Assembly: GCA_021803105.1 (NCBI GenBank)
Contig: JAJZMC010000007.1
Coordinates: forward strand, 27,794 to 91,793
DNA length: 64,000 nucleotides
Direction: 5' to 3'
Source: a bacterium
GTDB lineage: Bacteria > Patescibacteriota > Saccharimonadia > Saccharimonadales > UBA4665
The translations under genes were made by a program, and so were the position numbers. The notes under the pieces are model-generated. The model was not told the DNA's origin and ran no database searches. It worked only from the letters and a program-made list of their open reading frames with translations. Shown one piece after another: positions 24,237 to 40,494 of the stretch (the first letter of the stretch is position 1; every line of letters starts with the position of its first letter).

Positions 24237-24239
24237 AAG

Positions 24240-24713: not shown

Positions 24714-24721
24714 TAAACACC

Positions 24722-24750: not shown

Positions 24751-24768
24751 TCAGCAAGCAATTTATAT

Positions 24769-24843: not shown

Positions 24844-24914
24844 AATAGAACGTAACTGACGATTTAGCCTGTCCTTACCTCTGTTATTTTGATCTTTTTT
24901 AGCGGTTATATTAG

Positions 24915-26417
24915 TCATTTTATGCCTCCTAGCAAATTATTAGTTTTAATAACATTTTGAGCAATAATTTTTGCAAAATTAGTATACTCAACAGATATAA
25001 ATTCTTGTTCATAGGTAATACGACTGAAAAGTTTGCTTATTATTAGTCGTTTTACTTCCGGTGGCTTATTTTGGTACAACTGAGCAGCTTTTTGAGATAA
25101 TTCTAATAAGAGTAGTTTCTGATCTAAGTCTTTACTAACTAATGTATCAACCTGGGCTAATTTCTGCTCAAATTCATTAATCTGATTAATTAAATTCTGG
25201 TGTTTATCTTTATATCTAGCCTGAGTTATCTCACCAGATAATTTATCATCATAAAGGCTTTCATCCATTCGATTTAGTCGATTAATCTGTGATTGAATTG
25301 AACTGATTAGCTGTGTACTGTTGTTAATGTTTTTAGCATAATGATCTTTCATAGATTCAGCTAACCAATCAATAATTTCAGCAGAAGGACATACTAACTG
25401 TTCCAGCATTTTCATAATTGCTTGCTCAACTTTATCTTCCCTAAGTAGTATTCGGCCCTTACAGACCTCTAAACTGCGCTGACAATAACCATAATATCGT
25501 TTCTTTTGAAGTTGCCAGGTAACAACACTGCCACAATACTTACAATAAATTAAATTTTTAAATACAGGATTATGTTTAGCACGTCTTAATGCCCGCTTAC
25601 CTTGTAATTTGTTTTGAACTTGTTCGAATAATTCTTTAGAAATAATCGGTACTTGAGCACCAGGATATTCCTTGCCGTCAAACCGAATAATGCCAATATA
25701 GTAAGGATTTCTTAAAATTCGATGAACTTGGCTCTTATGATACTCTCTGCCTTTATGATTTCTAATACCCATTATTTGAAGCTCCTTAGTAATCGATTGG
25801 ATAGATTGACTAGGATCAAGATAAAGTTTGAAAGCTCTCTCGATTAAAAACTTAGTTTCTTCATCTGGTTCATGAATTCGTTTACCGTTAACAATAACTG
25901 TTTTATAACCTGGAGGTGGTGGGGCAGGTACCCAACCCTGGGCTAATTTTTCAGCCCAACCTTTCATAGCTTCTTCGCGTAAATTATCGCTATATTTTTT
26001 AGCAACTGATAAATGAATATTCCACATAAACTTAACATCAGATTTAGCTTCTTTATGTAGTAATAAGTTTTCTTTAACGGCATGAAGTCGTCGATCAACG
26101 TCTTTTTCCAGCCAATCGTCAATTGCAATAGCATCACGAAAATTTCTAGTTAATCTATCAGTCTTTTCAACTGCCAGATGATAGATATTTTCTTTACTAA
26201 GATAGGTTAGTAGCTCATGAAAGACTTTTCGACTCTGTTCCTTAGAGGCAGTTTCGGCTATTTTAAATACTTTAATAACGTTAAAGTTTCTACTGTCACA
26301 ATAACTCTGCAAAAGCTTAAGCTGAGAATCAAGTGAATAGCCTTCATCTTCTTGAGCTTTAGAAGAAACCCTAGCTAAAATAACTGCACTAGAATGATCT
26401 TTGACTAGAGTTTTCAT
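24915..26417 (-). CDS. large serine recombinase (integrase)
   Basis: The N-terminal resolvase catalytic domain reads AVILARVSSKAQEDEGYSLDSQ, with the catalytic Ser in the RVSS context. It is followed by a recombinase domain, a Cys-rich zinc-ribbon region (CKYCGSVV...CQRSLEVC) and a C-terminal coiled coil. Size is 500 aa. Confidence 0.9.
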   Translation of the reverse strand: MKTLVKDHSSAVILARVSSKAQEDEGYSLDSQLKLLQSYCDSRNFNVIKVFKIAETASKEQSRKVFHELLTYLSKENIYHLAVEKTDRLTRNFRDAIAIDDWLEKDVDRRLHAVKENLLLHKEAKSDVKFMWNIHLSVAKKYSDNLREEAMKGWAEKLAQGWVPAPPPPGYKTVIVNGKRIHEPDEETKFLIERAFKLYLDPSQSIQSITKELQIMGIRNHKGREYHKSQVHRILRNPYYIGIIRFDGKEYPGAQVPIISKELFEQVQNKLQGKRALRRAKHNPVFKNLIYCKYCGSVVTWQLQKKRYYGYCQRSLEVCKGRILLREDKVEQAIMKMLEQLVCPSAEIIDWLAESMKDHYAKNINNSTQLISSIQSQINRLNRMDESLYDDKLSGEITQARYKDKHQNLINQINEFEQKLAQVDTLVSKDLDQKLLLLELSQKAAQLYQNKPPEVKRLIISKLFSRITYEQEFISVEYTNFAKIIAQNVIKTNNLLGGIK

Positions 26418-26589
26418 CTTGATTATTACTCCCTAAAGCATTAAAGAGGCTAATTAACGATTCACCAATCTCACTAGCTTCAGAAAAACTCAGTATTAAA
26501 TGATTCTGCTGCTCAATGATCTGTTGCAAAGATTGAGTTCTTGTTCTTATTTTAATGTCTTTTGTTAAAGTTATACTTTCTTGTTCCAT
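26389..26589 (-). CDS. small hypothetical protein upstream of the integrase (possible directionality/regulatory factor)
   Basis: A 66-aa ORF overlapping the integrase start by 29 nt, preceded by the palindromic operator. No motif recognised. Confidence 0.3.
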   Translation of the reverse strand: MEQESITLTKDIKIRTRTQSLQQIIEQQNHLILSFSEASEIGESLISLFNALGSNNQDENSSQRSF

Positions 26590-26629
26590 CTAGATACCCT
26601 CCTATTAACTATTCATACAAGTATAGTTT

Positions 26630-26649
26630 ACTATTCATACGTGAATAGT
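26630..26649. promoter_or_regulatory. palindromic operator-like site ACTATTCA-tacg-TGAATAGT, with an extra half-site at 26608-26615
   Basis: A perfect 8-bp inverted repeat with a 4-bp spacer, and a third direct copy of ACTATTCA 22 bp away. It lies between the XRE gene and the small ORF/integrase unit. Confidence 0.45.
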
Positions 26650-26692
26650 TCAAGTAGTTATACACAGGATTTTTATGTTATATAAAAACTTA

Positions 26693-26905
26693 CTAAAAAG
26701 GTAGAATATCTGATGATTTAATTTTTAGAGCCTTAGCTATCTTTTCGATCATTTCAAATTTTGGTTTTATTTCACCTCGTTCTAATCGGGCATAGTGATT
26801 AGGACTAATACCGGCTTTAGTGGCAACTTCAATTTGAGTTAAACCACTATTACTTCGAGCGGCTTTTAATTTTTGTCCAAAAAGCTTAATAGAACTATCA
26901 GCCAT
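26693..26905 (-). CDS. XRE-family helix-turn-helix transcriptional regulator
   Basis: It is 70 aa. LTQIEVATKAGISPNHYARLERGE is a canonical Cro/CI-type HTH. Confidence 0.9.
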   Translation of the reverse strand: MADSSIKLFGQKLKAARSNSGLTQIEVATKAGISPNHYARLERGEIKPKFEMIEKIAKALKIKSSDILPF

Positions 26906-26987
26906 ATACCGATATTTTACCAGATTTTACTATATTAAAATAATCACTCTTCTTGTATGATATTTTTTTTCAGCTATACTTCAAATA

Positions 26988-27368
26988 ATGGATTCAATAA
27001 TTGAAAATAACTTAATCAATCCCTATCATGTAATTAATTTTGCAGATTATTTATTTAAACCTCAAATTCAACCAATTGCTAAAGAAGATTATGTACTAGC
27101 AAACGCTAAATTAATAAAGACATTAGGGGCTTCCACTTGGCTAACAAAACTAATTGAAATTTTAAGCAGTGAAGTAGACGACAAAACTTATGCCGTTATA
27201 AACCCAATTGAATCTGTCCTGATATCTGCAAGACTCCAAGGACAACATAAAACTATTATTGATTTAAAAGATTGGCTAAGTGCCAACATTAAATTAATCA
27301 ACGAAATCGGGGCAGAGGAATGGCTTTATCTACTACTCAATATCCTCGAAACTGCTAGCAATAATTAA
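26988..27368 (+). CDS. hypothetical protein with an internal duplication
   Basis: It is 126 aa and divergent from the XRE gene. Two related segments are present: ANAKLIKTLGASTWLTKLIEILSSE and ANIKLINEIGAEEWLYLLLNILETA. Confidence 0.5.
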   Translation: MDSIIENNLINPYHVINFADYLFKPQIQPIAKEDYVLANAKLIKTLGASTWLTKLIEILSSEVDDKTYAVINPIESVLISARLQGQHKTIIDLKDWLSANIKLINEIGAEEWLYLLLNILETASNN

Positions 27369-27483
27369 GCCTAAATCATCTTTTTATCTACTGCTTAATA
27401 GATCGATCGATTTATCTATTTAGCCTTAATTTCTTCTCTGTTATTTGTATTTTTCCGTCTACCATTTTATTATATATATACAT

Positions 27484-28272
27484 ATGAACCCTATAACTAT
27501 TAAATCTTATAAGAAACTAAACAATAAACAAATAAAATTACTAAAGATCTTATATAAGTTTAGGTTTGGTACTAGTGAACTAATAGCACTATTTATGGAT
27601 CAATCAACAGTCTATACCAGAACCAGGCTTAATAGATTATTAGAACAAGGTTACATTGCTAAAAATTATGATAGCACTTATAAACTAAGAGGAATACCAG
27701 CGAATCACTACTTATTACCTAAAGCTATTAAATTACTTAAAGACAATGATGAACTAGATCATAAAGGACTTCATTTACTCTACTACAATAAACAAGCCTC
27801 AACTAGATTTATTAAACACTGGTTAGAGATATTTAAAATCTATCAAAAACTAAATGAATTGTATAAAAAGAAACTAGAATTCTTTACCTCTACCGAAGTA
27901 GCTGATCAAAATCAATTCCCTAAACCTGGTCTTGATAGTTATCTAAATATTAATGATTCTTATTACTTTCTAGACCTATTAGATAACTCAATGTCATATA
28001 CCCTACTTAAAAGAAAAGTTAATAAACATATTAAATGCTATGAATCAGAAAAACTAGAAGGTGATTACCCAACTATTCTACTTATTTGTTCTACTAAGGC
28101 AATCAAGACAATGATGACTAAATATTTAAACTCTGTTTTGAATAAAAAAGGAATTGATCAGTTAGAATTTCTAATAACCACGAAAGTGGAATTATTAACA
28201 CAAAAAGATAGTAAACAGGCTATTTGGAGGGAGGTAATGGAGAATGAGAACGAGGAGTTAGTTAGTCTTTAA
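27484..28272 (+). CDS. replication-relaxation family protein (winged-helix, plasmid/ICE-associated)
   Basis: The N-terminus LNNKQIKLLKILYKFRFGTSELIALFMDQSTVYTRTRLNRLLEQGYI matches the pattern I associate with the Replic_Relax family. I prefer the ATG at 27484 (MNPITIK...) to the track start at 27445. Confidence 0.55.
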   Translation: MNPITIKSYKKLNNKQIKLLKILYKFRFGTSELIALFMDQSTVYTRTRLNRLLEQGYIAKNYDSTYKLRGIPANHYLLPKAIKLLKDNDELDHKGLHLLYYNKQASTRFIKHWLEIFKIYQKLNELYKKKLEFFTSTEVADQNQFPKPGLDSYLNINDSYYFLDLLDNSMSYTLLKRKVNKHIKCYESEKLEGDYPTILLICSTKAIKTMMTKYLNSVLNKKGIDQLEFLITTKVELLTQKDSKQAIWREVMENENEELVSL

Positions 28273-28372
28273 GAGTAGTTTTAAGCCTTACTTAGCTGAG
28301 TTAGCATAAACATTGACAAAACAAATAAAAGTAGTATAATATATATCATAAACTAAACAAGGTAGATGAATT

Positions 28373-29011
28373 ATGTCAGAAATCAGTAATTACCCAGACT
28401 TTTATAAATCTACTGAGGGACAATCAAAGCTAGGTACGGAAGAACTAATTCAAACAAATCAAGCATTTAATGAACTATTCGATGATTTAATGTTAATAGA
28501 CATGGAAATTGTAAAAAGGTTTGAGAGTTTTAATGATCGTCCTGTTGCAAACTTACTAAAAAAGATAGTAGTAGATGGTCAAAAATATACCTTAAACTTA
28601 GAGGACAAAAGTCAAAGAGACCCGAAGAGTGAGACTCCCGATATAACTTGGAGAGATAGTGAAATAATAATTAGAGATATTAGTTTACAAAGATCTGATG
28701 GAGTATATGGACGAGAATATTGGAGCTATAGACTCGGTGCAGATGGTATTGTTAGACGCTGGGACGGCGGAGATATTACCGCTAAAACACGCAATGAACG
28801 AGAGCTTGGTATTAAAGAACCAAAAATACGTGGAAACGAAACACTAGATGAACTCGGAAAACTTGCACTTGCTGGCTTACAAAGAACTATCGACCAAATT
28901 CCTAATAGTAGACTAGAAGAAGATATGGGCTTAAATAACCAGCCTGTTACATTAGCCGAAATACAGGGCTTGCAAGACTTTTTGAATAGAGCTACAGATA
29001 TTCAACGATAA
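28373..29011 (+). CDS. hypothetical protein
   Basis: A 212-aa ORF in the island, preceded by a plausible RBS region. No motif recognised. Confidence 0.5.
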   Translation: MSEISNYPDFYKSTEGQSKLGTEELIQTNQAFNELFDDLMLIDMEIVKRFESFNDRPVANLLKKIVVDGQKYTLNLEDKSQRDPKSETPDITWRDSEIIIRDISLQRSDGVYGREYWSYRLGADGIVRRWDGGDITAKTRNERELGIKEPKIRGNETLDELGKLALAGLQRTIDQIPNSRLEEDMGLNNQPVTLAEIQGLQDFLNRATDIQR

Positions 29012-29190
29012 CGTGGTTACTTATCTTAACTGAAATCTCCTTCTAAACACTCTAGAGCCTTTTTAAGCCTTACTCAGGGCTATCGAACTTACTCTAAATT
29101 AGACTCGATAACTTCTAACCAATCTACTTTAGATAAACTAGTAGACAATAGATCACTAAATAGACTAGCTCCAAGATTAAGATCATACAT

Positions 29191-29361
29191 TTAACCTTCA
29201 ACTAATTCTTGAAGTCTTTCGGCTTTGTTACTATTTGATATATTTAATCCTAAAATATCAGTTAATAGTCGATGGTTATATTCATCATTATTTAGCCATA
29301 GACTAACTAACCATGTCTCTCGGTTACTCCAACCGTTATATGTTAATGTTAACTCACTCAT
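29191..29361 (-). CDS. small hypothetical protein (a motif I associate with mobile elements and phages)
   Basis: The ATG at 29361 is preceded by AGGAG with a 9-nt spacer. MSELTLTYNGWSNRETWLVSLWLNNDEY resembles a short motif I associate with phage/plasmid small proteins. This is from memory only, and no family name is claimed. Confidence 0.45.
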   Translation of the reverse strand: MSELTLTYNGWSNRETWLVSLWLNNDEYNHRLLTDILGLNISNSNKAERLQELVEG

Positions 29362-29571
29362 TTCTTTCTTCTCCTTTACTTTACGTAATAAGAGAAATAA
29401 GAACATCCTAAGGAGACGATAGTTACAAGGTGGAGACGAAGTACTACCTTGTAACTAGAGTTCAAGATGTAAAATGATGGATTTACGTAAAGAGAAGAAT
29501 ATTTAAGGATAAGAATATATGCTCTATTGCTATAATTAATGTACAATATTTATAATGATTAAGTATAAACA

Positions 29572-30417
29572 ATGTCTAGCAATACACTCATAGCTTTCAA
29601 AAATATCGTCGACCAACCTCTTACGTCAGTAAACCCCGCAATAATATCCAGTAACAGAATTAATAATGTCGGTGATGCGCTTGAAAGCTTTGTCAAAGAT
29701 GCATATACGGGCTTATTGAATTCCAAATTAAATCAGACACAAAAAGATGAAAAATATTCTGAGATTTTTTCTTGGCTCGGTAATTCCTCCAACCCGCCCG
29801 ATTCACTTCTAAGAGCCGGTGACGGTATAGAGGTAAAAAAAATAGAGTCTCTAACATCAGATATAGCACTTAATAGTTCCTTCCCAAAAAACAAACTACA
29901 TTCTGATGACTCGCGCGTAGCAGGTGGCGCTAAACGTGCAGAAAATTGGACAGAACGAGATATTGTATATATTATTGGTACTGTCTTTAGTCAAGAACTG
30001 AGTCGCTTATGGTTTATTTATGGGGATTGTTACGCCGCATCAAAAGAAACCTATGAACGCCTTATTGAAGTTATTGGTGATGGCGTAAGAACTATCCCGG
30101 ATATTGAATTTCATGAGACTAACGAACTAGCAAAAATAAAGAAAGTAGATCCTCTAGGTATAACCGATATGAGAGTACGGGGTATGTGGCATATTCAAAA
30201 TCCATCTCGTTTATATTCAAATCTTGTAACTTCGAGTCCACAAAGACAGTATTACTTACTTATGAGAGAAGAAAAATATCAAAGTTTTCCCGAAGCTGAT
30301 AGGAGCAGCTTAGATAAACTCCATGTAAATGGTTACAGTAATTCTATTATTAAAATTCGTAATCCAGATAATCCAGCACAACTAATGAAAGCACGGTTTA
30401 TTAAATATGAAATTTAA
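29572..30417 (+). CDS. type II restriction endonuclease (candidate NgoPII/HaeIII-isoschizomer, GGCC)
   Basis: A 281-aa ORF whose 3' end overlaps the start of the C5-methyltransferase gene by 11 nt, the classic R-M operon arrangement. The nuclease call rests on this context. The size is close to what I recall for R.NgoPII. Confidence 0.6.
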   Translation: MSSNTLIAFKNIVDQPLTSVNPAIISSNRINNVGDALESFVKDAYTGLLNSKLNQTQKDEKYSEIFSWLGNSSNPPDSLLRAGDGIEVKKIESLTSDIALNSSFPKNKLHSDDSRVAGGAKRAENWTERDIVYIIGTVFSQELSRLWFIYGDCYAASKETYERLIEVIGDGVRTIPDIEFHETNELAKIKKVDPLGITDMRVRGMWHIQNPSRLYSNLVTSSPQRQYYLLMREEKYQSFPEADRSSLDKLHVNGYSNSIIKIRNPDNPAQLMKARFIKYEI

Positions 30418-31474
30418 CATTACATCATTTTTTTCTGGAGCCGGTGGATTAGACACTGGTTTTCATAATCAAGGTTTTAATATTATCTGGGCAAATGAAT
30501 ATGACAAAACAATAACACCTACCCTTAGAAAAAATTTTCCATCAACAATTATTGACGACAGAAGTTTATTCAATATTCCATCTGAAGATATCCCTGATTC
30601 TCTTGGTATTATTGGTGGTCCGCCATGTCAAAGCTGGAGCGTTGCTGGAGCTGGTAAGGGTTTAAACGACGAAAGAGGTGGAGTATTTCTAGAATATATT
30701 CGAGTAATTAGAGACAAAAAACCTCTTTTTTTTCTAGCTGAGAATGTTGCTGGAATGTTATCCTCAAGACACCAAGATTCGTTAAAGTTAATTATTAGTG
30801 AATTCAATAAATTAGGTTATTATTTTACCTATAAACTACTAAATGTCAGGGATTATGGCGTTCCAGAGGATCGCAAAAGAGTCATATTTATTGGCTATAA
30901 TAAGAAATTAGGTAAATCTTTTACTTTTCCTAAACCTGTTTCAGATAATGATAAAAAAAATCTGAAAGACGCTATATGGGATTTAAAAGATAGTGCTAAA
31001 CCCGCAAAAGCTAAAAATAAGACTAATGGCAACAATTTAAAGGTTTTAAACCACGAATACATGACTGGAGGCTTTTCTACTATGTATATGTCTAGAAATA
31101 GAGTCAGAAACTGGGATGAACCATCTTTCACGATTCAAGCGGGTGGCAGACACGCCCCAATTCATCCTCAAGCACCAAAAATGATTAAGGTAGAGACCAA
31201 TGTTCAAAAGTTTGTTCCAGACAAAGAACATTTATATCGTCGACTATCAGTACGTGAAGTAGCAAGAATACAAACATTCCCAGACGATTTTGAGTTTATC
31301 TATACCGACGTAGCTGATGGATATAAAATGGTAGGTAATGCAGTACCGATAAAATTTGCTGAAGTTATTGCTAAACAAATCAAAAAAGATCTAGATGAAT
31401 ACTATAGTATAAAAGTTTCAAAGTTAGCTCCAAAAAAAATCATTAAAAAGTGTTACAAAACTGCTACTGTATAA
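30407..31474 (+). CDS. DNA (cytosine-5) methyltransferase, M.HaeIII/M.NgoPII-like
   Basis: All C5-MTase motifs are present: I FFSGAGGLDTGF, IV GGPPCQSWS, VI ENVAGML, VIII EDRKRVIFIGY, IX LSVREVARIQTFPDDF and X GNAVP. The variable region (IWDLKD...NKTNGN...NHEY...MSRNRVRNWDEPSFTIQAGGRHAPIHPQAPKM...KEHLYRRL) closely parallels M.HaeIII as I remember it. Confidence 0.92.
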   Translation: MKFNITSFFSGAGGLDTGFHNQGFNIIWANEYDKTITPTLRKNFPSTIIDDRSLFNIPSEDIPDSLGIIGGPPCQSWSVAGAGKGLNDERGGVFLEYIRVIRDKKPLFFLAENVAGMLSSRHQDSLKLIISEFNKLGYYFTYKLLNVRDYGVPEDRKRVIFIGYNKKLGKSFTFPKPVSDNDKKNLKDAIWDLKDSAKPAKAKNKTNGNNLKVLNHEYMTGGFSTMYMSRNRVRNWDEPSFTIQAGGRHAPIHPQAPKMIKVETNVQKFVPDKEHLYRRLSVREVARIQTFPDDFEFIYTDVADGYKMVGNAVPIKFAEVIAKQIKKDLDEYYSIKVSKLAPKKIIKKCYKTATV

Positions 31475-31757
31475 TAACTAAACATCCTAGTTTACTAAAA
31501 GTATACTCATATCCCGACTTCAACAATAAATACTACTTATTTAGGGTCTCTATAACTGAAGTTGGAGGTTATTTTACCAAATTATTATGCGGTATCTCGA
31601 TAATTACGTTAGTGTGCCGAAATTAAGCACATGCTATCTGTTAACAGCTCCAAAACAAGATCTTGTGGTCAAGTCAGGTAATTGTCTAACTACTATTGAT
31701 TAAGACAATTAATTAATCTAACATCTTAAACATTTCATTATAATGTAAAATGTATCT

Positions 31758-32216
31758 ATGGATAACAATGAAAAAACTGAACTTCTACTAAAAGCGGAAA
31801 ACTATGACAAATTTAAAGATGAAATCGGCAAAGAATATGTAAATAACATACGCTATTTAAAGACAGATCTCAGTTCATGGTTTAACGCATTAACGGCAGC
31901 TAGTTTTACAGTTGGTGCAATAGCAATCACAATAGGATCCGACAAGACTGTGAATTCTGGCATTTCTCATCCTGACTACTTTTGGTGGGGAACATTTTTA
32001 TTAATATTGGACGGAGTTCTGATATTCCTTCTTAAAAAACACGATATTGAAAACAATCTTAATGAAATGCCTCAATTAACCGAATCAAAAGCAGATTATT
32101 GGGAATTAAGAAACCTTACAATTGAAAAATCTAATGATAATAACATGAATAATAGTCGACTAGAAACTTTAGAAAAAAACGTAATTAGAGATTATGAAGA
32201 ACTTATTAAAAAATAG
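31758..32216 (+). CDS. hypothetical two-TM membrane protein
   Basis: It is 152 aa with two hydrophobic helices (FNALTAASFTVGAIAITIG and WWGTFLLILDGVLIFLL) and a charged C-terminus. A further ~59-codon hydrophobic ORF follows at ~32301-32480. Confidence 0.45.
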   Translation: MDNNEKTELLLKAENYDKFKDEIGKEYVNNIRYLKTDLSSWFNALTAASFTVGAIAITIGSDKTVNSGISHPDYFWWGTFLLILDGVLIFLLKKHDIENNLNEMPQLTESKADYWELRNLTIEKSNDNNMNNSRLETLEKNVIRDYEELIKK

Positions 32217-32558
32217 TCCTGGTATAAATGGATAAAAAAAGACAACCCAAGCGGCTACAACTGATATTGTTTTTGGCTTATTTTTATTCCCAATTATTCT
32301 TATGCTATCTCAAATAATACATAAACTACATATCTCAATGAATTTTTATACGCTAATATTACAGGCATTATTAATTCTCTATATAATTTATACTATCCGT
32401 GGTGGCATTATTGGAGTGAAAGCAATAAAAAAACAACAGGCAACTGAACAAAGAATAAAAAAACTAGTTATTAAAAAATAACAAATAATCTTATAAGTTA
32501 TTAATTAGATATTTAAAAAATTAATCATGATTTTTTGTTTGACAAAATTTTAACTCTT

Positions 32559-32987
32559 TTATTCTTTATCTATAAATTTCACAGTATAATTCTTCCTGGA
32601 ATTAACTTTCACTAAATCGGTCACATTCTTATTTCCATCATCCTCTAACAATAACGTTCTCCCAGACATTGGTTCTTGTGGTTCAATAGCGGTTATCCGT
32701 ATATAGAAGTTATAGCTTGGTAGATTAGTTATTTCTCCTTCTTCTAGGAATGGTTTAAATAAAGGAAGTATTAACTGTTCATCTAATGGACTCCCAGTTC
32801 TAAAGACCACTACTGTTCCAACATTAGCTAGAATTATATTAACCATTCTTTGTTCTTCTTGTTGAGAAGTAGATTGTTCAACCATAATTAGATATAACTT
32901 ATACTTTCTAGCCTCAGATAACATTTGCACAAATGAAGTAGTGGCAAAGTTCTGAAACTCATCAACATAGAGAAAGAAATAAAAATC
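32559..32987 (-). pseudogene. 3' remnant of a second VirD4/TraD-like ATPase gene (starts at the Walker B region)
   Basis: Hand translation from 32987 gives DFYFFLYVDEFQNFATTSFVQMLSEARKYKLYLIMVEQSTSQQEEQRMVNIILANVGTVVVFRTGSP...LLLEDDGN.... This is colinear with PFYLYVDEFQNFATISFVQLLSEARKYKLFLTMAEQSTAQQEEKRLVDIMLANVGTVICFRSGSP...VLLEDNGS of the 864-aa protein. No N-terminal two-thirds is present. Confidence 0.8.
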
Positions 32988-34838
32988 TTAATTAGTTAAT
33001 AAGAGCCTATTCATGAAATATTTTTCCAGTTCTTTGTCTTGAAAATAGACATAGCAACCCCTCATTCCCCTAGTCATTAAGACTTTATAGATGTTACGGA
33101 CTAGTCTATTCAACTCTTCGGGCTTATCTTTCATACCTTGTTTACCAGTTATATCTTTGTAATTGGTATAAGCGGTGCTAAATTGATTCTTATTTGGGTT
33201 AAAATTTAAATCATCCCCGATGATTACCCCAACATAGTCAAATTCCAATCCCTGTGATGTATGTATGCAACCAACTTGGTTAATACCTCGCTCATCAATC
33301 GCCCAGGTTGTGCCGACCTTACGCGAGTTCCAGGGCATCCTAAAATCGAATTCTGGTATGGTTATGTCTTCAACCTCGCCGTCTTGATTTCCACTGGAGG
33401 CCGATGTCCACATCCATGAATATCCAGCAAGCATACGGGCAGAGAAATTTTCAGATTTTTTATTTATCTCATCTCGCATGTCATTTGGATTGTTAAAAAT
33501 TCTAAAATCAAAGCTCTTTTTATCCCAACCATTGTAGTTCGCTGTTTCCTTTAATTGGAGAACATCATTAAGCCAATTAATATATCCTTCTGCTCCAGCA
33601 CATCTAAATTGTGCCGTTAGTTCCATTTCATATATTTTGGCGTTCTGATCCTCGGCAATTCTTTTAAGCTCTTTTATAGTGCCAATGTCTTCTGGTCTTA
33701 CTGCTTGATCATCGTCTATGAAAAAAATCGATGTTCTAGCCGCCTTAATTACATCCTCGACTTGGTTAGCACCTTTATACATGAATGCTCCCTTATTTTT
33801 GAGCCTATGCGCTTCATCAATAATCAGGGCATCAAATTCATCTTCTTTAGCATCATAAAATGAAGCTGATCCCTTGAATATATTGCGAATTCTCTGGGCT
33901 GAGTGTTCTTGAGTTAATCTTTTAACCAATGTATTTCTAAATGAAGAATTAGGAGCTACAAAAATTGCATTAAGATTATCTTTTAGCAAAGCGCTAATTA
34001 AATTTACTGAAACTACGGATTTACCAGTGCCAGGACCACCCTGAATAATGACGACTGATTTTTCTTTTTTATTGGCTATCAACCGAGCGGTCTCAAAGGC
34101 AACTTTTTGTTCATCTAATAATATATAATTCTGATTGCCCTTAAACATACTAGCGACATGATCAATGAGTTTTTTAGAAGGTCGAATCTTACCATTATTT
34201 ATTTCGTATAGGATATCCATTCCGTTGCCATATTTAACGTATTTGGCCAAAAAATCTTCGAGTTTTGATTGATCATCTCTGAAGTAAATTGGAGATTTAT
34301 CTATAACTGTTGTGTACTTATCTTCCAGTAATGGCTCGGGTTGTTTCTCTAGATAATTGTGTAAATAAGCACAGGAATAGGCACTTACGCTTCCGCTATA
34401 GATAGTCTCATTAAAATCAGACATAAAGTCTTTGTATCTCATCGCTTGATAACTGGGGTGAGTAACTACTCGTGGTGCACCCCCAGTATATGATTCTACA
34501 AGGCCATCACCATCAACCGAAGATGCTTTTTGCCACTGTTTTAACTCAACAATTACAAAGTTTTTATTGCCTTGATCATCATGTCCAGAGATTACAAAAT
34601 CTATTCTAAAATTAGTCAGAGGTATTTTGTATTCAATTAAAACCCCGCAGTCCTCAGCAACTTCAGATCGCTTTACTACCATTCCCATGCGTGGTAATGA
34701 ATTTTGATATGCGGTAACTTCACCAGGAGGTATGCTTCTTCCGAGTTTTTCTTGAAATGCCGTCTCGATCTGTGTCATGAGAGAGTTTGATTCAACATCC
34801 TCCATAAATCTTCTGGCGGTAGCTTCATAAACTATCAT
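32988..34838 (-). CDS. DUF2075/Schlafen-helicase-type P-loop NTPase with an N-terminal PD-(D/E)xK-like nuclease domain
   Basis: It is 616 aa. The N-terminal part has FRIDFVISGHDD...FVIVELKQW (a D...E-x-K pattern). Walker A is QGGPGTGKSV and Walker B is ALIIDEAHRL. The overall layout is what I associate with DUF2075 proteins. Its start overlaps the MazG-like stop (ATGA). Confidence 0.7.
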   Translation of the reverse strand: MIVYEATARRFMEDVESNSLMTQIETAFQEKLGRSIPPGEVTAYQNSLPRMGMVVKRSEVAEDCGVLIEYKIPLTNFRIDFVISGHDDQGNKNFVIVELKQWQKASSVDGDGLVESYTGGAPRVVTHPSYQAMRYKDFMSDFNETIYSGSVSAYSCAYLHNYLEKQPEPLLEDKYTTVIDKSPIYFRDDQSKLEDFLAKYVKYGNGMDILYEINNGKIRPSKKLIDHVASMFKGNQNYILLDEQKVAFETARLIANKKEKSVVIIQGGPGTGKSVVSVNLISALLKDNLNAIFVAPNSSFRNTLVKRLTQEHSAQRIRNIFKGSASFYDAKEDEFDALIIDEAHRLKNKGAFMYKGANQVEDVIKAARTSIFFIDDDQAVRPEDIGTIKELKRIAEDQNAKIYEMELTAQFRCAGAEGYINWLNDVLQLKETANYNGWDKKSFDFRIFNNPNDMRDEINKKSENFSARMLAGYSWMWTSASSGNQDGEVEDITIPEFDFRMPWNSRKVGTTWAIDERGINQVGCIHTSQGLEFDYVGVIIGDDLNFNPNKNQFSTAYTNYKDITGKQGMKDKPEELNRLVRNIYKVLMTRGMRGCYVYFQDKELEKYFMNRLLLTN

Positions 34839-35194
34839 TTGTTTTCAAGTTCCGTATATTTTAGGTGATTACCTTTAGCTTTATGGACCGGATATTTAAT
34901 TTCATTTTTAATCATTTTACTGTCTAATGCCTGCCTCAAATCTATGTCTAAGTCATTTGCTATTAATAATACCCAATACAAAACATCAGCCAGCTCATCC
35001 GCAATATCTTTTTTTTTGTTTTTTAAGTGTGCTTCTATCTCTTCATTATTCTTCCACTGAAAATGTTCTAAGAATTCAGTTGATTCTAATACGAGCGAGA
35101 TAGCCATATCTTTAGGATTATGGAATTGTTTCCAATTACGATCGTCTCGAAACTTAATTATTCTTTTAGCTAAATTTTCGAAATTGCTTTTCAT
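34835..35194 (-). CDS. MazG-like nucleoside triphosphate pyrophosphohydrolase (small all-alpha type)
   Basis: It is 119 aa. RDDRNWKQFHNPKDMAISLVLESTEFLEHFQW...ELADVLYWVLLIANDLDIDL matches the EExxE/D-bearing helices of the small MazG/YpjD/DCTPP1-like family. Confidence 0.75.
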   Translation of the reverse strand: MKSNFENLAKRIIKFRDDRNWKQFHNPKDMAISLVLESTEFLEHFQWKNNEEIEAHLKNKKKDIADELADVLYWVLLIANDLDIDLRQALDSKMIKNEIKYPVHKAKGNHLKYTELENK

Positions 35195-35448
35195 TGTTTT
35201 CCCTAAGTTGTATTTTATAAGTTTCCTGTCAATAATTATAATCCAAAATTAATATTTTTAATAAGTCTGGTCATCATTTTATTAAACTGAATTATTATCA
35301 GATAAACAAAAATATGTAACAAAATAGACGAGTATGGACTTATCAGACACACAAAATAAGCTAACTCGTCATCGTGATAACATTAATATATCAAAAAATA
35401 CTTGAAAATCAATAATTATATCAAACGTTACTTGTTTTTATCAACCGC

Positions 35449-38043
35449 TTACTTATTCTTGCTAAATTTACCCTTAGTTCTCTGATTATTTGATTTACGT
35501 TTTTTACTAGCTTGATAGTTTTTAATTGGTATATCACTAACAATTTTCTCTTCCGGCTGAACATATAATTTGGCATAACTATCTCTTGATGTCTCAACAA
35601 CTCTTCCAGCTACTTCTTCACTCCCATTATCTTCAAGTAAGACCGTCTCCCCAGACAAAGGTTCTAAGACACTAACAGCTCTCAGTCTCATATAAAAGCT
35701 ATAAGCTGGCAAGTTAGCTATATCACCTTGATCTAGTTGTGGTTTAAAGATAGGTAGTAATAGTTTTTCATCTTGTGGACTACCTGATCTAAAACAAATA
35801 ACTGTCCCAACGTTAGCTAGCATAATATCAACTAGTCTTTTTTCTTCTTGTTGAGCAGTCGATTGTTCTGCCATAGTAAGAAATAACTTATACTTTCTAG
35901 CTTCACTAAGTAATTGAACGAAACTAATTGTTGCAAAGTTTTGAAATTCATCAACATAAAGATAAAAAGGAGTCCTGCTGTCTTCTCCTAGTCTAGCTCG
36001 TCTAAGGGCAGATAACTGCAACTTAGCTAGAACACTAATACCAAGTAGAGTAGAGGTATCTTCTCCAATATGACCCTTAGCAAAGTTACAGATAAGTATC
36101 TTACTATCCTGAATAATATCATCAAAGTTAATAGTAGATTTAGCTTGTTCTAGTATTCTTCTACTAACAACTGATCTTTGGAATCTACCAAGCTTAGCAT
36201 TAACACCACTACTCATCTTTATTTTCTGGTAATCACCAGCACTATTAAATTCACCAGCCCAGAAGTCTTTTAAATCTTCATCAGTTAGTTTATCTACTAC
36301 TGATCTTCTAAACTTACTATTAGTGAGTAGCTTATAGACAGTAAATAAAGTAGCATCAGGAACAGTAAAAGCTGTATGAATAGTATTTCGAAGGAAATGT
36401 TCAATTCGATGACCACCATGATCATCCTCAGAAAATATTTTTCGAAAAACCGATATAACAGCTTCCGTGATAAAATCTTGTTCTAGTAGTAGTTCATCTT
36501 CACTTAAACCTTTTGGTTGTTCAAGCAAATTAAGTCCAATCGGATGAGCTATATCTCTTGGATTAAAGTAAATAACGTCTTTTATTCTACTCTCTGGAAT
36601 ATACTTTAGGATTGACTCGGCTAGATCACCATGAGGATCAATTACAGCCACACCTTTACCAGCTTTAATATCTGAAATAATTGCTGATTTAATCATAGTT
36701 GTTTTACCGTTACCACTACCACCTAAGATATAGACATGACGCTGTCTTTCTTCTTCTGTTAGTCCAACTAGATTATCATGATCATGGTAGTGATTTATCC
36801 CGTAGATAACATCAAAACTATCACTAGTTGATCTATTTTTAATAGCCAGTGGAACAGGTAAGACCTTAGATAATGATTTAACTACTTCATTACTATTACT
36901 ACCAAGACTTGGGAAGTGATAAATACTAGCTAACTCTTGGCTAGATAATATAGAAGAACTACTAGTTAAAATTGATGGTAATCGTCCACTATAAACATCC
37001 AGTTTATATTTCCAGGCAAAAGACTGACTAGTATTTTTTCTAATTATTATTTCCTGATAACCAGGAACATTAAATAAAGACAGAGCACTACTTAAACCTT
37101 TGATTCTTTGTTTGTAATTATCTCCAATAGCTAGGATTCTAATATCGACATAAAATAAGGGTTGATCTAATTTATCATAGATTGAAGTAATAACGTGTTT
37201 GGTAGTTGATGACAAACTTGGTGTTTTACTTGTTTTTAAGTATTTAGAATCTTTAAATATAAAGTGCAGAATAATATCTACTAATGTCACACTACTTACA
37301 AAAAGTAGTCTAATTAATCTAAATAGCCAGAAACCTTTACGTCGGTTAATACTACCGTCTTTACCAGCAAGTAGTTTTTTTCGGATCTTACTACTAGTCG
37401 AAACATCAACTGGTGAAGTAACTAGTTGCAGAGCAATGATCTCATCATCAGCTGGTGAAACCATTGATCCAGTAATAAAAGATAAGACATCATTAGTCTT
37501 AGTAGCTAGGGGATAAGCGTAGTGAGCTGACTGACAAAACTCAACTATTTGACAGTTAGAACTAGTTAAATCTCTAGGTAGATAATCTGGTATTTCTTTT
37601 ATCTGAATCTCTGGCATAAAAGATTCAAGTAACTGTTTAAACAAGAAAGAGTAGTCCTCATTTAGTCCAGCAATGAATCTAATACCATCACGTTTAGTTG
37701 ATACTAGTTCTAGTGATATAATCTTTCTTCGTCTTAGTAACTTATCTTTTAGCGAAACTTTATTAGTTAGTCCATAAATACTATTAAAAAACTTAGCTAC
37801 TTCATTAGTAGTTTTATTGTTACTATAAGGCGTCGTTAATTCTAAAAATATAACTGAGCCTTTTTTAAGATGAATGTAGTCTAGAGTATCTAATATTTTA
37901 TTAATGATACTAGCTAGTATTAATCTATATAAAATAATAAAAACAATAACAATAAAGGCAAAATTAATAAAAAAAGTCAAAAGAGAAGTACCAAAGATTT
38001 GCTGAAACAGATTGTAATGAATAACTGCTATAACTTCTAGCAT
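35449..38043 (-). CDS. VirD4/TraD(TrwB)-like type IV secretion coupling-protein-like P-loop ATPase
   Basis: It is 864 aa with N-terminal TM helices. Walker A is GGSGNGKTT, followed by AVIDPHGD, and Walker B is YLYVDEFQNF. It is colinear with the 1005-aa protein at 51812-54829. Confidence 0.7.
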   Translation of the reverse strand: MLEVIAVIHYNLFQQIFGTSLLTFFINFAFIVIVFIILYRLILASIINKILDTLDYIHLKKGSVIFLELTTPYSNNKTTNEVAKFFNSIYGLTNKVSLKDKLLRRRKIISLELVSTKRDGIRFIAGLNEDYSFLFKQLLESFMPEIQIKEIPDYLPRDLTSSNCQIVEFCQSAHYAYPLATKTNDVLSFITGSMVSPADDEIIALQLVTSPVDVSTSSKIRKKLLAGKDGSINRRKGFWLFRLIRLLFVSSVTLVDIILHFIFKDSKYLKTSKTPSLSSTTKHVITSIYDKLDQPLFYVDIRILAIGDNYKQRIKGLSSALSLFNVPGYQEIIIRKNTSQSFAWKYKLDVYSGRLPSILTSSSSILSSQELASIYHFPSLGSNSNEVVKSLSKVLPVPLAIKNRSTSDSFDVIYGINHYHDHDNLVGLTEEERQRHVYILGGSGNGKTTMIKSAIISDIKAGKGVAVIDPHGDLAESILKYIPESRIKDVIYFNPRDIAHPIGLNLLEQPKGLSEDELLLEQDFITEAVISVFRKIFSEDDHGGHRIEHFLRNTIHTAFTVPDATLFTVYKLLTNSKFRRSVVDKLTDEDLKDFWAGEFNSAGDYQKIKMSSGVNAKLGRFQRSVVSRRILEQAKSTINFDDIIQDSKILICNFAKGHIGEDTSTLLGISVLAKLQLSALRRARLGEDSRTPFYLYVDEFQNFATISFVQLLSEARKYKLFLTMAEQSTAQQEEKRLVDIMLANVGTVICFRSGSPQDEKLLLPIFKPQLDQGDIANLPAYSFYMRLRAVSVLEPLSGETVLLEDNGSEEVAGRVVETSRDSYAKLYVQPEEKIVSDIPIKNYQASKKRKSNNQRTKGKFSKNK

Positions 38044-38946
38044 GATTCCTCTTATTTCACCACTGTTTGGACGGTATTGTAACTGATTAGATTTATATTA
38101 GCAAATATATTTTAATAATTACTTATTTTTCAGTGTTACGAATGTATAATAATATTAGAAATAAAGTAAAATTATCTTACGAAATAAAATTTAAAGTACA
38201 TGAGCACTAAGCATTCTATCGCAGGAGTTAAAAGATAATGGGGCGCACTAAAGGATCAACGAATAAAGAGCGTCCGGTACCATGGCCTATGAATTTATCT
38301 AGGAAAGATCGGCTGGAGTTAATAGCTAATATTATAGTCGATAAGATCATTGAGATCAGAGAAACGGAGGCCCATTGCTAAAAAAAATTGAAGCTCAACA
38401 AAAAATATCAAAAAAGTCAGATTATAAATAACCATTAAACCATCTGTATAAATTAACATATAGGGTTTCTATTTTCTCACATACCTAAAAGACTCAGGTG
38501 TATATGAAACTTTCAAAGCATTCTAAAGTGCTACAATATACTTATGAATCAAAAAATATCTAAACCTAAACACCTTAGTAAACAGCAGGAAGAGCTTATC
38601 GATCAAATAACAAAAATATCAAAGATCCTGTGCGGTCAGTCAACGCTAAAGGAATGATAAGAGAAGCAATGAGTGGGAATAAAGAGCTAGCGGATATTAT
38701 ACATAGGATGATTGTCTCAGCGCTGAATGAACAAAAACAAACTATTTCGTAAAATTATTTACAGTAGATCAAACTATAGAATCAAAAGATAAACAATAGT
38801 TGTATAAATGTAGTCTAAACAAAGATTATAAGAACCTTTAAATAAATTTAATATTTTATTGATAACATAACAAAATTATAAATTAACGAATACTATACTT
38901 TATAAATAGTACAAATTACCTAAATAATCAAGACTTTTATGGCAAT

Positions 38947-40408
38947 TGTTGCTCGCCAATAGAAATGTCCGGATTTGCGTTCAATAGAAATGTCCAGTTT
39001 TTTGGTATGATCCTATTTAAAAAATAGGAGGATTTAATGCCAGAAATAATAAGGTTATCTCAAAAAGAACTGAACCAAGTTAGTGTCATAAAACAAGTAG
39101 CTGAAGGTAAACTCAAGCAAATAGAAGCAGCTGAAAGTTTAGATATAACAGACAGACAAATAAGAAGGCTACTCAATAAATATAGAGATGAAGGTAATAA
39201 AAGTTTTGCTAATAAATTAAGAGGCAGACCTAGTAATCACCAACTGGATAAGGGTTTTAAAGATAAAGTAATTAAGTTAGTTAAAAACAAATACCCAGAC
39301 TTTGGTCCAACCTTTGCAGCCGAAAAACTTAAGGAATTGGACGGTATTAGTATATCTGTATCTACTTTAAGACGCATAATGGTAAATAATGACGTTTGGA
39401 GAGAAAAAAGGCGTAAGAAACCTATTCACAGAACCAGGAGGCCTAGGCGTTCATGCTACGGAGATATGGAACAATTTGACGGCTCAAGCCATGACTGGTT
39501 TGAGGGTAGATATAACCATGGTGAATATACTACATTACTAGCTAGTATTGACGATGCTACGTCTATAGTTAATGCTTGGTTTAGTGACTATGAAGGGACT
39601 GTGCCTGTCATGAAGTTTTGGTGGGGGTATTTTGAGAAATATGGTAAACCTCACAGTATTTATCTAGATCGTCACAGCACATACAAAGTTAACTCTAAAA
39701 ATGCACTAGATAATGACAGCATCGTATCTGAATTTACTAGAGCCATGAAAGAATTAGGCGTACAGGTTATTAATGCAAATAGTCCTCAGGCTAAAGGTAG
39801 AATAGAAAGATTATTTGGAACCCTGCAAGACAGATTAGTAAAAGAGCTCCGCCTCGCAGGTATTAATAATCCTAATGATGCCAATAAATTTTTGCAAGCT
39901 TATTTACCTAGGTTTAATGCCAGGTTTAACGTTGAGGCTACCAGTAGCACAGATACTCACGTTATGTTATCTAAGCAGTACGATCTTAACTCAATCCTGT
40001 CTGTTCAGTCTGTACGCATTGTTAGTCGTGACTTTGTGGTTAGCTTTAAGAACCATTGGTATCAACTATCTAAAGATCAGCCTACTACAGTTTATCCTAA
40101 TAGTAAGGTAATCATTGAAGAGAGGTTAAATGGTAATTTATTGATACGTCTCAATAGCAAGTATCTAAACTACACTAAGCTAGACATTAAACCACGGAAA
40201 CCTAAAGTACTAGCCCCAGTTTTAGCCCCTAATCCTACTAAAAGACCTTATAAGCCATCAGCTACTCATCCGTGGAGAAGTATTAGGTTATTACCCTACA
40301 ATATTAGTAATAGACCGAATCAAACACCACCATCAAAGAAAATTACTTAAAAACGAATCCGGACATTTCTAAAAGTTTAAATCCGGACATTTCTACTGAA
40401 TTTCAACA
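38947..40408 (+). mobile_element. insertion sequence (rve/DDE transposase, TGT termini; IS481-like or ISNCY-like), copy 1
   Basis: The imperfect terminal inverted repeats both start with TGTTG. Each end carries two copies of the subterminal motif (A/T)AGAAATGTCC(G/A)G. These sit at 38959-38975 and 38984-38998 on the left, with the mirrored copies at 40357-40372 and 40381-40396. It has a single transposase ORF. No target-site duplication is visible. Confidence 0.8.
39037..40350 (+). CDS. IS transposase (N-terminal HTH + integrase-core DDE domain)
   Basis: It is 437 aa and preceded by AGGAGG. The HTH reads ITDRQIRRLLNKYR. Catalytic-core-like segments are MEQFDGSSHDW, IYLDRHSTYK and ANSPQAKGRIERLFGTLQDRLVKELR. 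By eye it is about 65-70% identical to the ORF at 45312-46637. Confidence 0.9.
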   Translation: MPEIIRLSQKELNQVSVIKQVAEGKLKQIEAAESLDITDRQIRRLLNKYRDEGNKSFANKLRGRPSNHQLDKGFKDKVIKLVKNKYPDFGPTFAAEKLKELDGISISVSTLRRIMVNNDVWREKRRKKPIHRTRRPRRSCYGDMEQFDGSSHDWFEGRYNHGEYTTLLASIDDATSIVNAWFSDYEGTVPVMKFWWGYFEKYGKPHSIYLDRHSTYKVNSKNALDNDSIVSEFTRAMKELGVQVINANSPQAKGRIERLFGTLQDRLVKELRLAGINNPNDANKFLQAYLPRFNARFNVEATSSTDTHVMLSKQYDLNSILSVQSVRIVSRDFVVSFKNHWYQLSKDQPTTVYPNSKVIIEERLNGNLLIRLNSKYLNYTKLDIKPRKPKVLAPVLAPNPTKRPYKPSATHPWRSIRLLPYNISNRPNQTPPSKKIT

Positions 40409-40494
40409 GGTTAGGGGTTATATTTAGGGGTTATATTTATTCTAATTAATTGAATTATCCCAAAAAGTAAGTTATTATTTAATAATATTTTTGC

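Follow-up and report, generated by a model that had tools for sequence, protein, structure and literature searches.

A probable mosaic remnant of a Saccharibacteria-specific integrative element family beside a tRNA-Asn gene

Integrative and mobilizable elements (IMEs) of streptococcal class 8 unite a serine integrase with a MobC relaxase and a coupling protein of the VirD4 type (Coluzzi et al. 2017, PMC5357655). Prototypes of the FATA type of mating-pair formation (MPF-FATA), found in monoderm bacteria, are pGO1, pCF10, CTn2 and ICESaNEM316 (listed in PMC12102498). The Patescibacteria type IV secretion system (T4SS) has been portrayed as chromosomal, poor in relaxases, indispensable for epibiosis and probably non-conjugative (Wang et al. 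2023; Quinonero-Coronel et al. 2025, PMC12102498), a view repeated in a 2025 review (PMC12857230). The survey found VirB4 in most genomes and 5,713 type IV coupling proteins (T4CPs), about 2 per genome and mostly far from virB4, and just 109 relaxases, of which 58 were MOBC and 39 were close to a t4cp gene (PMC12102498). The near-universal T4SS of these Candidate Phyla Radiation (CPR) bacteria was accordingly interpreted as non-conjugative, with relaxases rarely found; the words recombinase, integrase and tRNA occur 0 times in that paper (PMC12102498). Among Prochlorococcus tycheposons, 27 of 937 use a large serine recombinase (bioRxiv 10.1101/2020.12.28.424599). Here we analyse a 64,000-nt stretch of a Saccharimonadales genome (UBA4665; GCA_021803105.1, contig JAJZMC010000007.1, positions 27,794 to 91,793), hereafter the window. 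Its positions 24851-38946 form an island of ~14 kb adjoining a tRNA-Asn gene. The island is probably a decayed mosaic remnant of a Saccharibacteria-specific family of IMEs and of integrative and conjugative elements (ICEs), which carries defence cargo and has lost its distal end.

An earlier note on this DNA had proposed an integrative element of mobilizable or conjugative type, with defence cargo, in a CPR bacterium. That proposal is upheld: the recombinase-relaxase backbone is found again, with other cargo, next to tRNA genes of dozens of Saccharibacteria genomes; at the exact junction, a conspecific contig is without the island; and one relative carries a full T4SS. All the genes that the note had listed were found at or near where it had placed them, including one full and one partial VirD4/TraD-like gene.

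Conspecific contigs were retrieved by an exact-protein look-up with SmpB and then aligned to the window. The left border lies exactly at 24850|24851, 7 nt past the encoded CCA of tRNA-Asn(GTT) (24769..24843, + strand; ARAGORN, Rfam and junction alignment); smpB ends at 24713. In contig L003 (GCA_027427355.1), the sequence was 99.94% identical over window positions 23124-24850 and unrelated beyond. The last common letters were ...GAGCCAAATAGAA, followed by unrelated TATTCAGTATTAAC..., and the junction had the form tRNA-Asn|TATTCAGT. The attL-type left junction of the island (24838..24870) comprises GAGCCA + AATAGAA, common with this alternative site, and element sequence from 24851, where the P-arm starts with CGTAACTGACG. 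The island had been thought to begin at 24844; its actual start is 24851, since the 7 nt after CCA are common with the alternative site. An AAA_14 ATPase gene, absent from the window, follows tRNA-Asn in L003, and no site of the predicted empty form smpB-tRNA-Asn-tRNA-Val-thrS turned up. The L003 site could not be extended: its 196-aa AAA_14 fragment had best homologues of 65-70% identity, mostly on short contigs, and none was near-identical and full-length. An exact match to 29 nt covering the 3′ end of tRNA-Asn and the spacer was found 0 times in the JGI metagenomes, and the species evidently lies outside that collection.

Assembly structure pointed to the same position. In sample ERZ27237454, the 51-kb housekeeping contig L002 ends exactly at 24850 and the island forms a separate contig of 14,430 bp (L012); the two should overlap by about one 141-mer, by arithmetic from the stated length and the aligned part. 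Because L002 stops at 24850 and the island is separate, the assembly graph branches at 24850|24851. There is thus insertion polymorphism or heterogeneity at a point defined to a single nucleotide. The island was contiguous in at least three independent assemblies, and a sister species carries a 94%-identical recombinase at the same smpB-tRNA-Asn site.

The family was delimited by an alignment-based scan with the large serine recombinase (LSR) of the island, one genome per species. This gave 80 loci, nearly all titled Saccharibacteria/Saccharimonadales, which were annotated by tblastn, ARAGORN and clustering of open reading frames (ORFs). An oppositely oriented tRNA gene was found ~60-130 nt (mostly 67-87 nt) past the LSR stop codon in 61 of 81 copies from the 80 genomes (tRNA-Gln, 35; tRNA-Trp, 24; tRNA-Asn, 2), and nine of the 81 copies ran off a contig end. 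The target tRNA type followed the LSR clades in part; the clade of the window copy includes Gln, Trp and Asn users. tRNA 3′ ends are normally targets of tyrosine integrases. The earlier note was right to call a serine recombinase beside a tRNA gene unusual, and in this family the arrangement is the rule.

The LSR gene of the window (24915-26417, minus strand, 500 aa) has its stop codon 64 nt from the junction. The protein scored above cut-off for Resolvase (PF00239, 69.5 bits), Recombinase (PF07508, 66.2 bits) and Zn_ribbon_recom (PF13408, 26.9 bits), and it matched XisF/CcrB-like models in NCBIfam. R16, S18 and S19 were invariant in 36 homologues, and the catalytic serine is probably within ARVSS (aa 15-19). 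More than 1000 homologues were found; the 120 best listed were 60-94% identical, and the named hosts among those listed were Saccharibacteria/Saccharimonadales and one Chromulinivoraceae.

Divergent from the recombinase lies the gene of a putative relaxase (27445-28272, plus strand; gene callers start at 27484, 262 aa) with an N-terminal winged helix. It probably belongs to Replic_Relax (PF13814), which is the MobC relaxase superfamily (PMC5357655) and has been placed in the PD-(D/E)XK superfamily (PMC3424549). PF13814 was matched by 40 of 45 aligned orthologues (best E = 8e-14), and a precomputed match is present on the orthologue of L106. An orthologue was found in 60 of the 80 loci, divergent from the LSR and 1-2.5 kb upstream, always in the same relative position. 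In a profile comparison with PDB, solely the N-terminal winged helix was matched (MarR-like structures), and a tblastn search of 72,556 plasmids gave no match.

A further gene (35449-38043, minus strand) encodes a full-length VirD4/TraD-like coupling ATPase of 864 aa with a hydrophobic N-terminus that comprises a transmembrane segment and a DUF8128 region. Walker A (GGSGNGKT) starts at aa 441 and Walker B (YVDEFQNF) at aa 696. Pfam scores exceeded the cut-offs for TrwB_AAD_bind (25.8 vs 20.5 bits), TraG-D_C (25.5 vs 22) and T4SS-DNA_transf (22.5 vs 20.1); NCBIfam matches to the TraD family were far under their cut-offs, and identity to plasmid homologues was 21-33%. In 16 loci, a count limited by the 10-kb flank, an orthologue is encoded 4-10 kb upstream of the LSR and on the same strand as it. 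In these 16 loci it is linked to the relaxase and the LSR, and in L105 it adjoins the CHAP and VirB4 genes.

A complete relative was found through a look-up with the coupling-protein homologue P0061 on a 445-kb JGI contig (Ga0376075_0000016; L105/L106). Its gene order is pilin (T4SS_pilin/TrbC), TrbL_3/VirB6, PrgI, TraC-like protein, VirB4-like ATPase, CHAP, coupling protein, cargo, Replic_Relax, XRE, a 67-aa ORF and LSR, ending directly at tRNA-Gln. By this gene content, the element is a full ICE. Five more loci (L057, L060, L065, L088 and L090) had the same block with VirB4-like and CHAP-like ORFs in our own ORF calls, and the T4SS-bearing block of L060 fits into ~10.5 kb. Members without a mating pore had the order XRE-T4CP-cargo-RepRelax-LSR (L027, L089); in L109, XRE-T4CP-cargo was found with no T4SS upstream, and the 10-kb flank showed no RepRelax or LSR. 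Tandem recombinase copies were present in L020 and L028. Homologues of the VirB4-like, CHAP, PrgI-like and TraC-like proteins were absent from the 64-kb window (tblastn, 1e-3). The window copy therefore has the integrase, relaxase and coupling protein of an ICE and no mating-pore T4SS of its own. Compared with an IME, it has these three components, the expected absence of a T4SS and a defined left border; neither a right border nor an origin of transfer (oriT) was found.

To characterize the insertion sites, 61 tRNA junctions were aligned on the tRNA 3′ end. They read ...GCCA + (T/A)A(T/C)AG(A/G)ACG.A... and then run into a T-rich segment of lower conservation, and the motif (T/A)ATAGAACG after CCA was conserved across all 61. 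On the other strand, the T-loop motif TTCGAAC was at +18 from TGGC in 58 of 58 scored tRNA junctions; in the window, this tRNA 3′ end (TGGC...TTCGAAC, complementary strand) is the chromosomal half-site beside the element. Junctions without a full tRNA also start with TGGC. In L052, L093 and L101 the motif was at +18 and corresponds to tRNA 3′ fragments; in L020, L028, L032, L072 and, more weakly, L084 it was at +23, ~70-110 nt past the recombinase stop codon. Phage-type large serine integrases include those of phiC31, Bxb1 and A118/LI. In structural work on the LI integrase, a 5-bp outward shift of the distal motif reportedly separates attP from attB half-sites. By analogy with that shift, the +23 class may represent P′ half-sites, at tandem or attP-type junctions.

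These alignments suggest a crossover in or next to CCA. We considered a crossover in the T-loop with an element-borne copy of the tRNA 3′ end, in the manner of tyrosine integrases, and set it aside, a rejection that is itself inferential. The position near CCA is preferred because no displaced tRNA fragment is found at the far ends, because some tRNA-less junctions have a T-loop-like motif displaced by exactly 5 nt, and because L003 has just the 7-nt proximal motif in common. The common AATAGAA followed by divergence would be explained if L003 holds the B half-site of an empty attB. The attL/attR search proposed earlier succeeded on one side: the attL-type junction is exact, and neither an attR-type repeat nor a second tRNA-like site was found in the window. 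Within the island there was no second copy of the 31-nt tRNA end (≤3 mismatches) or of its 13-nt core (≤2 mismatches). No direct or inverted match to the P-arm rose above shuffled background in the window or L105. Direct repeats ≥11 nt were absent from 38 relatives apart from isolated 11-12-nt AT-rich chance matches (L022, L089, L097), and no attP/attB pair of one same element was recovered.

Two further loci have unusual tRNA-Asn contexts. In L101, a sister-species contig (ERZ27237466 k141_335598, 2620-5399), the recombinase is identical to P0121 (100% protein identity); past it lie a degenerate tRNA-like piece, DUF2164, a 32-nt tRNA-Asn 3′ fragment, Fic and HicAB, with no tRNA-Asn or smpB there. 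This layout suggests island accretion (stacked islands) or an alternative att context at the locus. In L051 (~1620-1680), what comes after the recombinase, beside smpB, is a 44-nt 3′ portion of a tRNA-Asn-like sequence. ARAGORN calls no tRNA there, and the sequence may be a disrupted or unusual tRNA-Asn gene.

The island carries a second, partial coupling-protein gene that bears on its history. At 32559-32987 (minus strand), a 3′ stump of 142 codons begins at Walker B (LYVDEFQNF), in frame directly past the stop codon of the DUF2075 gene, which it abuts. The stump was 57% identical in amino acids and 75% in nucleotides to the resident full gene; however, its identity to the C-terminal parts of P0024 and P0026, which represent another coupling-protein lineage, was 92-93%. 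Because the stump matches that lineage and not the resident gene, the island appears to consist of an element A joined to an element B. On this comparison, the stump is best described as a pseudogene at the join of the two.

Right-side conspecific contigs were obtained by a look-up with ThrS and aligned to the window. The island is followed by an insertion sequence (IS) of the ISNCY family (38947..40408, plus strand; transposase, 39037-40350), with ends TGTTG...CAACA and internal inverted repeats; the transposase scored 395 bits with NCBIfam NF033594 (cut-off, 250). Several contigs end inside the IS (L011 at 39384, L012 at 39139, L007 from 40223, L009 from 40283), which indicates that it is a repeated, multi-copy sequence. 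L006 (GCA_027447005.1, 85.7 kb) was 99.96% identical to window positions 38947-52796; left of 38947, it has rplJ-rplL-dnaX-dnaB-recR and not the island. The IS copy of L006 is bracketed on both sides by TTAGG(G), resembling a target duplication. In the window copy, the left flank ..ATGGCAAT is unrelated to the right flank GGTTAGGGG.., without duplication. The arrangement rplJ|IS|tRNA-Val therefore looks like the original insertion. The island|IS-left junction was present in at least three assemblies; judged from these alignments, it either arose by IS-IS recombination or reflects an assembly path across the repeat.

The onward link from the IS to tRNA-Val (40495-40571, plus strand) and thrS (start, 40943) is insecure, and tRNA-Val is no att site. 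Since tRNA-Val/thrS is joined to the island solely through the repeated IS, it is no demonstrated natural right border, and the description of the island as flanked by tRNA genes does not hold for the borders of the element. The IS is separate from the ancestral element and marks a rearrangement or assembly breakpoint. Between it and the coupling-protein gene lies an AT-rich region of 0.9 kb (38044..38946) containing a conserved small ORF (38238-38381, plus strand). The region has 77% nucleotide identity to the stretch 5′ of the P0008 homologue. It contained no remnants of T4SS genes (tblastn, tblastx) and no att-like sequence. The small ORF has 47 aa here and 64 aa in L017 (L017/L018 8599-8776; 77% nucleotide identity), in otherwise different contexts. 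A second ISNCY-like transposase gene (45312-46637, minus strand, 441 aa, HTH_32) shares ~66-71% nucleotide identity with parts of the IS; the conspecific contigs L006 and L007 have it too.

A history that fits these data can be proposed. Insertion by the LSR would place the element directly behind the CCA encoded by a tRNA gene (tRNA-Asn in the window), and the 3′ end of that tRNA (TGGC...TTCGAAC) would serve as one attB half-site. The XRE repressor and palindromic operators would control the small-ORF/recombinase operon (a role predicted for the operators). Replic_Relax would act as relaxase and the VirD4-like ATPase with its DUF8128 N-terminus as coupling protein, and the space between their genes as cargo bay. 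Complete members have in addition a monoderm-type T4SS (pilin, VirB6/TrbL, PrgI, TraC-like, VirB4, CHAP) and are ICEs. Members without a T4SS may be mobilized in trans by a co-resident ICE or, more speculatively, by the chromosomal T4SS of Saccharibacteria. In the window, element A would have given the recombinase, the relaxase, the GGCC-type restriction-modification (R-M) genes and the coupling-protein stump, and element B the full coupling-protein gene, MazG and DUF2075. A deletion or recombination with its endpoint precisely on the DUF2075 stop codon may have fused the two. Insertion in tandem and a later deletion are the likely route, and tandem copies do exist in L020 and L028; recombination is the alternative, and the order of events is conjectural. 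Lost with the distal end would be the second att site and any mating-pore genes, and a recombined ISNCY copy (or assembly join) would now stand there instead. With its recombinase, relaxase and coupling protein apparently intact, the island would now serve mainly for defence, fixed or semi-fixed in place. It lacks mating-pore genes and a recognisable second att site. Self-transmission has probably been lost, and excision may have been lost as well.

Several observations weigh against a decayed ICE/IME remnant. The relaxase of the window scored 24.6 bits with PF13814, just below the cut-off of 25.3, and no nicking motif or oriT was identified for the window element. Neither an excised circle nor a second junction was observed for the island. 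The alternative site in L003 covers only 2.5 kb and could hold a different island instead of an empty attB. The IS-to-thrS link could be genuine in this strain, as the contig was assembled in several samples. Close relatives of the coupling protein (59-89% identical) are solitary, without recombinase or T4SS, and the full coupling protein might have a non-conjugative role, as proposed for Patescibacteria T4CPs (PMC12102498). Solitary homologues are flanked by defence genes or IS (L014, L017, L107), and because close homologues stand alone in this way, decay to a coupling protein plus cargo appears to be common.

The same solitary genes would be expected if the island were a non-mobile defence hotspot at a tRNA locus, made of domesticated or unrelated genes, with coupling paralogues serving the epibiotic T4SS and not DNA transfer. 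The published view that Patescibacteria T4SS and T4CPs have been recruited to other roles (PMC12102498) and the nearly native composition of the island also agree with such a hotspot. We consider it improbable, because the recombinase-relaxase module is linked to tRNA genes of three kinds and has conserved ends around a cargo that varies, tandem copies exist in L020 and L028, a complete block of T4SS, T4CP, relaxase and recombinase lies beside tRNA-Gln, and a conspecific site lacks the island. A somewhat better, still unlikely alternative is an intact, mobile, T4SS-less IME of the order (regulator)-coupling protein-cargo-relaxase-recombinase, with its distal end within 38044-38946 and the IS merely adjacent. 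T4SS-less architectures do recur (L027, L089; L109), the recombinase, relaxase and coupling-protein ORFs are full-length, and the assembly graph branches at the left junction. However, 24851-38946 contains neither a tRNA-like or P′-type half-site nor a junction repeat, the stump implies at least one internal deletion or fusion, and the IS lacks on the island side the target duplication that is present in the rplJ-side copy.

Large serine recombinases are typical of temperate phages, which speaks for a prophage or for a phage satellite that a serine integrase has inserted. The nearest phage integrases were 25-31% identical to the LSR. The coupling protein matched phrog_5156 (unknown function) over its full length (E = 1.5e-61) in PHROGs and one contig (L013, 40% identity) in IMG/VR. 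Against a phage origin, none of the 10 island proteins scanned (orphans, relaxase, coupling protein, MazG, DUF2075) matched capsid, portal, tail or lysis PHROGs; the lone match in a structural category was a weak, partial terminase-large-subunit match on the P-loop of the coupling protein. A recombinase scan of viral contigs gave no relative, and the relatives of the island bear conjugation genes instead. We regard a phage origin as very improbable; PHROGs and IMG/VR may wrongly list such elements as viral. The decayed ICE/IME remnant is the preferred interpretation.

The remaining backbone genes are small. A 66-aa ORF (26389..26589, minus strand) overlaps the LSR start, is one of a small family (c3) whose members lie upstream of the LSR in ~30 loci, and is a candidate regulator or directionality factor. 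Two tandem palindromic, operator-like sites of 22 nt (26605-26648; ACTATTCATAC..GTATAGT) lie 5′ of this ORF and the LSR. Next to them, an XRE-family repressor-like protein of 70 aa with a Pfam HTH_3 domain is encoded at 26693-26905 (minus strand) and is present in 19 of the 80 loci. A third, related copy of the site (26946-26960) lies in the region where XRE and the next gene diverge. The XRE regulator with an operator reported earlier is thus present, with operator function predicted from the palindromes. The divergent gene (26988..27368, plus strand) encodes a 126-aa protein (family o126/c13) with orthologues at the same position in 10 loci; profile searches gave no family match for it. DUF7249 (29191..29406, minus strand) is shortened, with 71 aa compared with 88-120 aa in relatives. 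DUF7249, XRE, the 126-aa protein and a ~70-aa ORF overlapping the LSR start recur across the related loci.

The R-M, MazG, DUF2075, 212-aa and 152-aa genes were found in 0 of the 80 related loci and are therefore regarded as cargo. The orphan 212-aa ORF (28373..29011, plus strand) is bracketed by 24-nt direct repeats, 83% identical, at 28272-28295 (AGAGTAGTTTTAAGCCTTACTTAG) and 29054-29077 (AGAGCCTTTTTAAGCCTTACTCAG), which may reflect a small insertion or repeated terminators. The type II R-M genes (29572..31474, plus strand) encode an NgoPII-family restriction endonuclease (29572-30417; PF09521, 310.7 bits) and a C5 cytosine methyltransferase (30407-31474; PF00145, 303.8 bits), overlap by 11 nt, and are labelled REase_II and MTase_II by PADLOC. 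Their presumed GGCC specificity derives from family membership alone. In the whole window, GGCC occurred 36 times compared with 60 expected from trinucleotide frequencies, whereas CCGG, GCGC and CGCG were close to expectation; this mild depletion is consistent with exposure to a GGCC-specific R-M system. An orphan membrane-like 152-aa ORF and a 59-aa ORF (31758..32481, plus strand) follow, as cargo or genes of no assigned role. The candidate defence pair at 32988..35194 (minus strand; Pfam) consists of a DUF2075/SLFN-group-3 SF1 helicase (616 aa) and a MazG-like pyrophosphatase (119 aa), with a 4-nt overlap. PADLOC matched AbiO/Nhi to the helicase core alone (aa 235-465; E = 5e-17 and 4e-15), over ~200 of 470 profile positions; the helicase had no full-length match to the Nhi/AbiO model, and the MazG-like protein had no PADLOC match.

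The window contains three tRNA genes (ARAGORN, with Rfam concordant): tRNA-Asn, tRNA-Val and tRNA-Pro (47749-47825, minus strand). The comparison of composition suggested earlier had a mixed outcome. The GC content of the island (0.323) was barely distinct from that of the flanks (0.312 and 0.299), and its tetranucleotide distance was modestly raised (p=0.004). The GC and k-mer contrast was too weak a sign of foreign origin to speak for or against it. GC skew changed sign and cumulative skew reached its minimum at ~37000-40500, near the island/IS boundary, and at the same place the genes changed from a predominance of the minus strand to one of the plus strand; an origin, a terminus or an inversion endpoint could lie here. 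Outside the island, a second VirD4/DUF8128-like ATPase (51812-54829, plus strand, 1005 aa) was 28% identical to the island coupling protein over 776 aa. Two small ORFs (51009-51398 and 51429-51809) precede it in housekeeping surroundings with no VirB4 nearby, and it is probably a chromosomal T4CP paralogue. An ORF of more than 2073 codons (57780-63998, plus strand; GC 0.35-0.42) runs past the window end and probably encodes a giant surface protein; Rfam found no rRNA there. RNase P RNA (class A, bacterial) was found at 48709-49067 (plus strand, 247.6 bits).

CPR/Patescibacteria are thought to exchange DNA mainly via natural competence. For one lineage, a recombinase-relaxase-coupling backbone at tRNA genes, sometimes with a full mating pore, points in the opposite direction from the non-conjugative view of their T4SS. 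The backbone offers a testable route for horizontal transfer and for the spread of defence systems among ultra-small epibionts, and the family would explain some of the surplus T4CP paralogues in CPR. The score of the window relaxase, just under the Pfam cut-off, suggests that relaxases of CPR bacteria escape detection at profile thresholds. The newly tractable Saccharibacteria might also gain a genetic tool in a serine integrase whose target, a tRNA 3′ end, is compact and predictable. The window copy itself is ordinary in one sense, being a decayed, IS-scrambled defence island. A broader picture would join a Saccharibacteria ICE/IME family, use of the tRNA 3′ end (CCA plus T-loop) as attB half-site, repeated switching among tRNA-Gln, tRNA-Trp and tRNA-Asn, MobC/Replic_Relax proteins as the ‘missing relaxases’ of Patescibacteria, extra VirD4-like genes as coupling proteins of elements, conjugative function of some CPR T4SSs, and T4SS-less members, such as the island's ancestors, riding a host T4SS, a system whose essentiality was shown in one species. 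We offer it tentatively, with slightly less than an even chance that all of it holds.

The element type is known as such: IMEs and ICEs with a serine integrase, a MobC relaxase and a VirD4 protein have examples in Firmicutes. What appears to be undescribed in the literature searched is the Saccharibacteria lineage, with its systematic use of tRNA 3′ ends as targets and its link to CPR T4SS genes. Like the streptococcal class-8 IMEs, the window has an LSR, a putative Replic_Relax/MobC relaxase and a VirD4-type protein, carries cargo and lacks a mating pore. It differs from them in its host (CPR/Saccharibacteria and not Firmicutes), in the great distance between the proteins, and in the DUF8128 N-terminal region of the coupling protein. 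The serine integrases of streptococcal IMEs reportedly target protein-coding genes, whereas the window recombinase lies at a tRNA 3′ end. The complete relative L105 resembles MPF-FATA ICEs and plasmids in having PrgI, VirB6/TrbL-like, VirB4, CHAP and VirD4-like genes in one block together with a relaxase and an integrase; in contrast to them, the family is compact (~10-17 kb), has a VirB2-like pilin gene and a divergent MobC-type relaxase, and in the window copy lacks the entire mating-pore block. With the chromosomal T4SS of Patescibacteria the family shares the host group and VirB4, VirB6, PrgI, pilins and a VirD4-like T4CP; however, a recombinase, a relaxase and a tRNA insertion site are linked to its T4CP and, in relatives, to the whole T4SS. 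Tycheposons are likewise tRNA-associated integrative islands with cargo and defence genes, and form a minor precedent for an LSR at a tRNA gene; however, they are replicative/PICI-like, mostly use tyrosine recombinases, have no relaxase, coupling protein or T4SS, and occur in an unrelated host phylum. The phage-type large serine integrases, finally, have the same catalytic, recombinase and zinc-ribbon domains as the window LSR and likewise lack long flanking direct repeats; some tRNA-less junctions of the family have the distal motif exactly 5 nt further out than in the tRNA half-sites, which may correspond to the difference between attP and attB half-sites of such integrases. The family departs from them in its identity of at most 31%, its target at the tRNA 3′ end, and an element that is conjugative or mobilizable and not viral.

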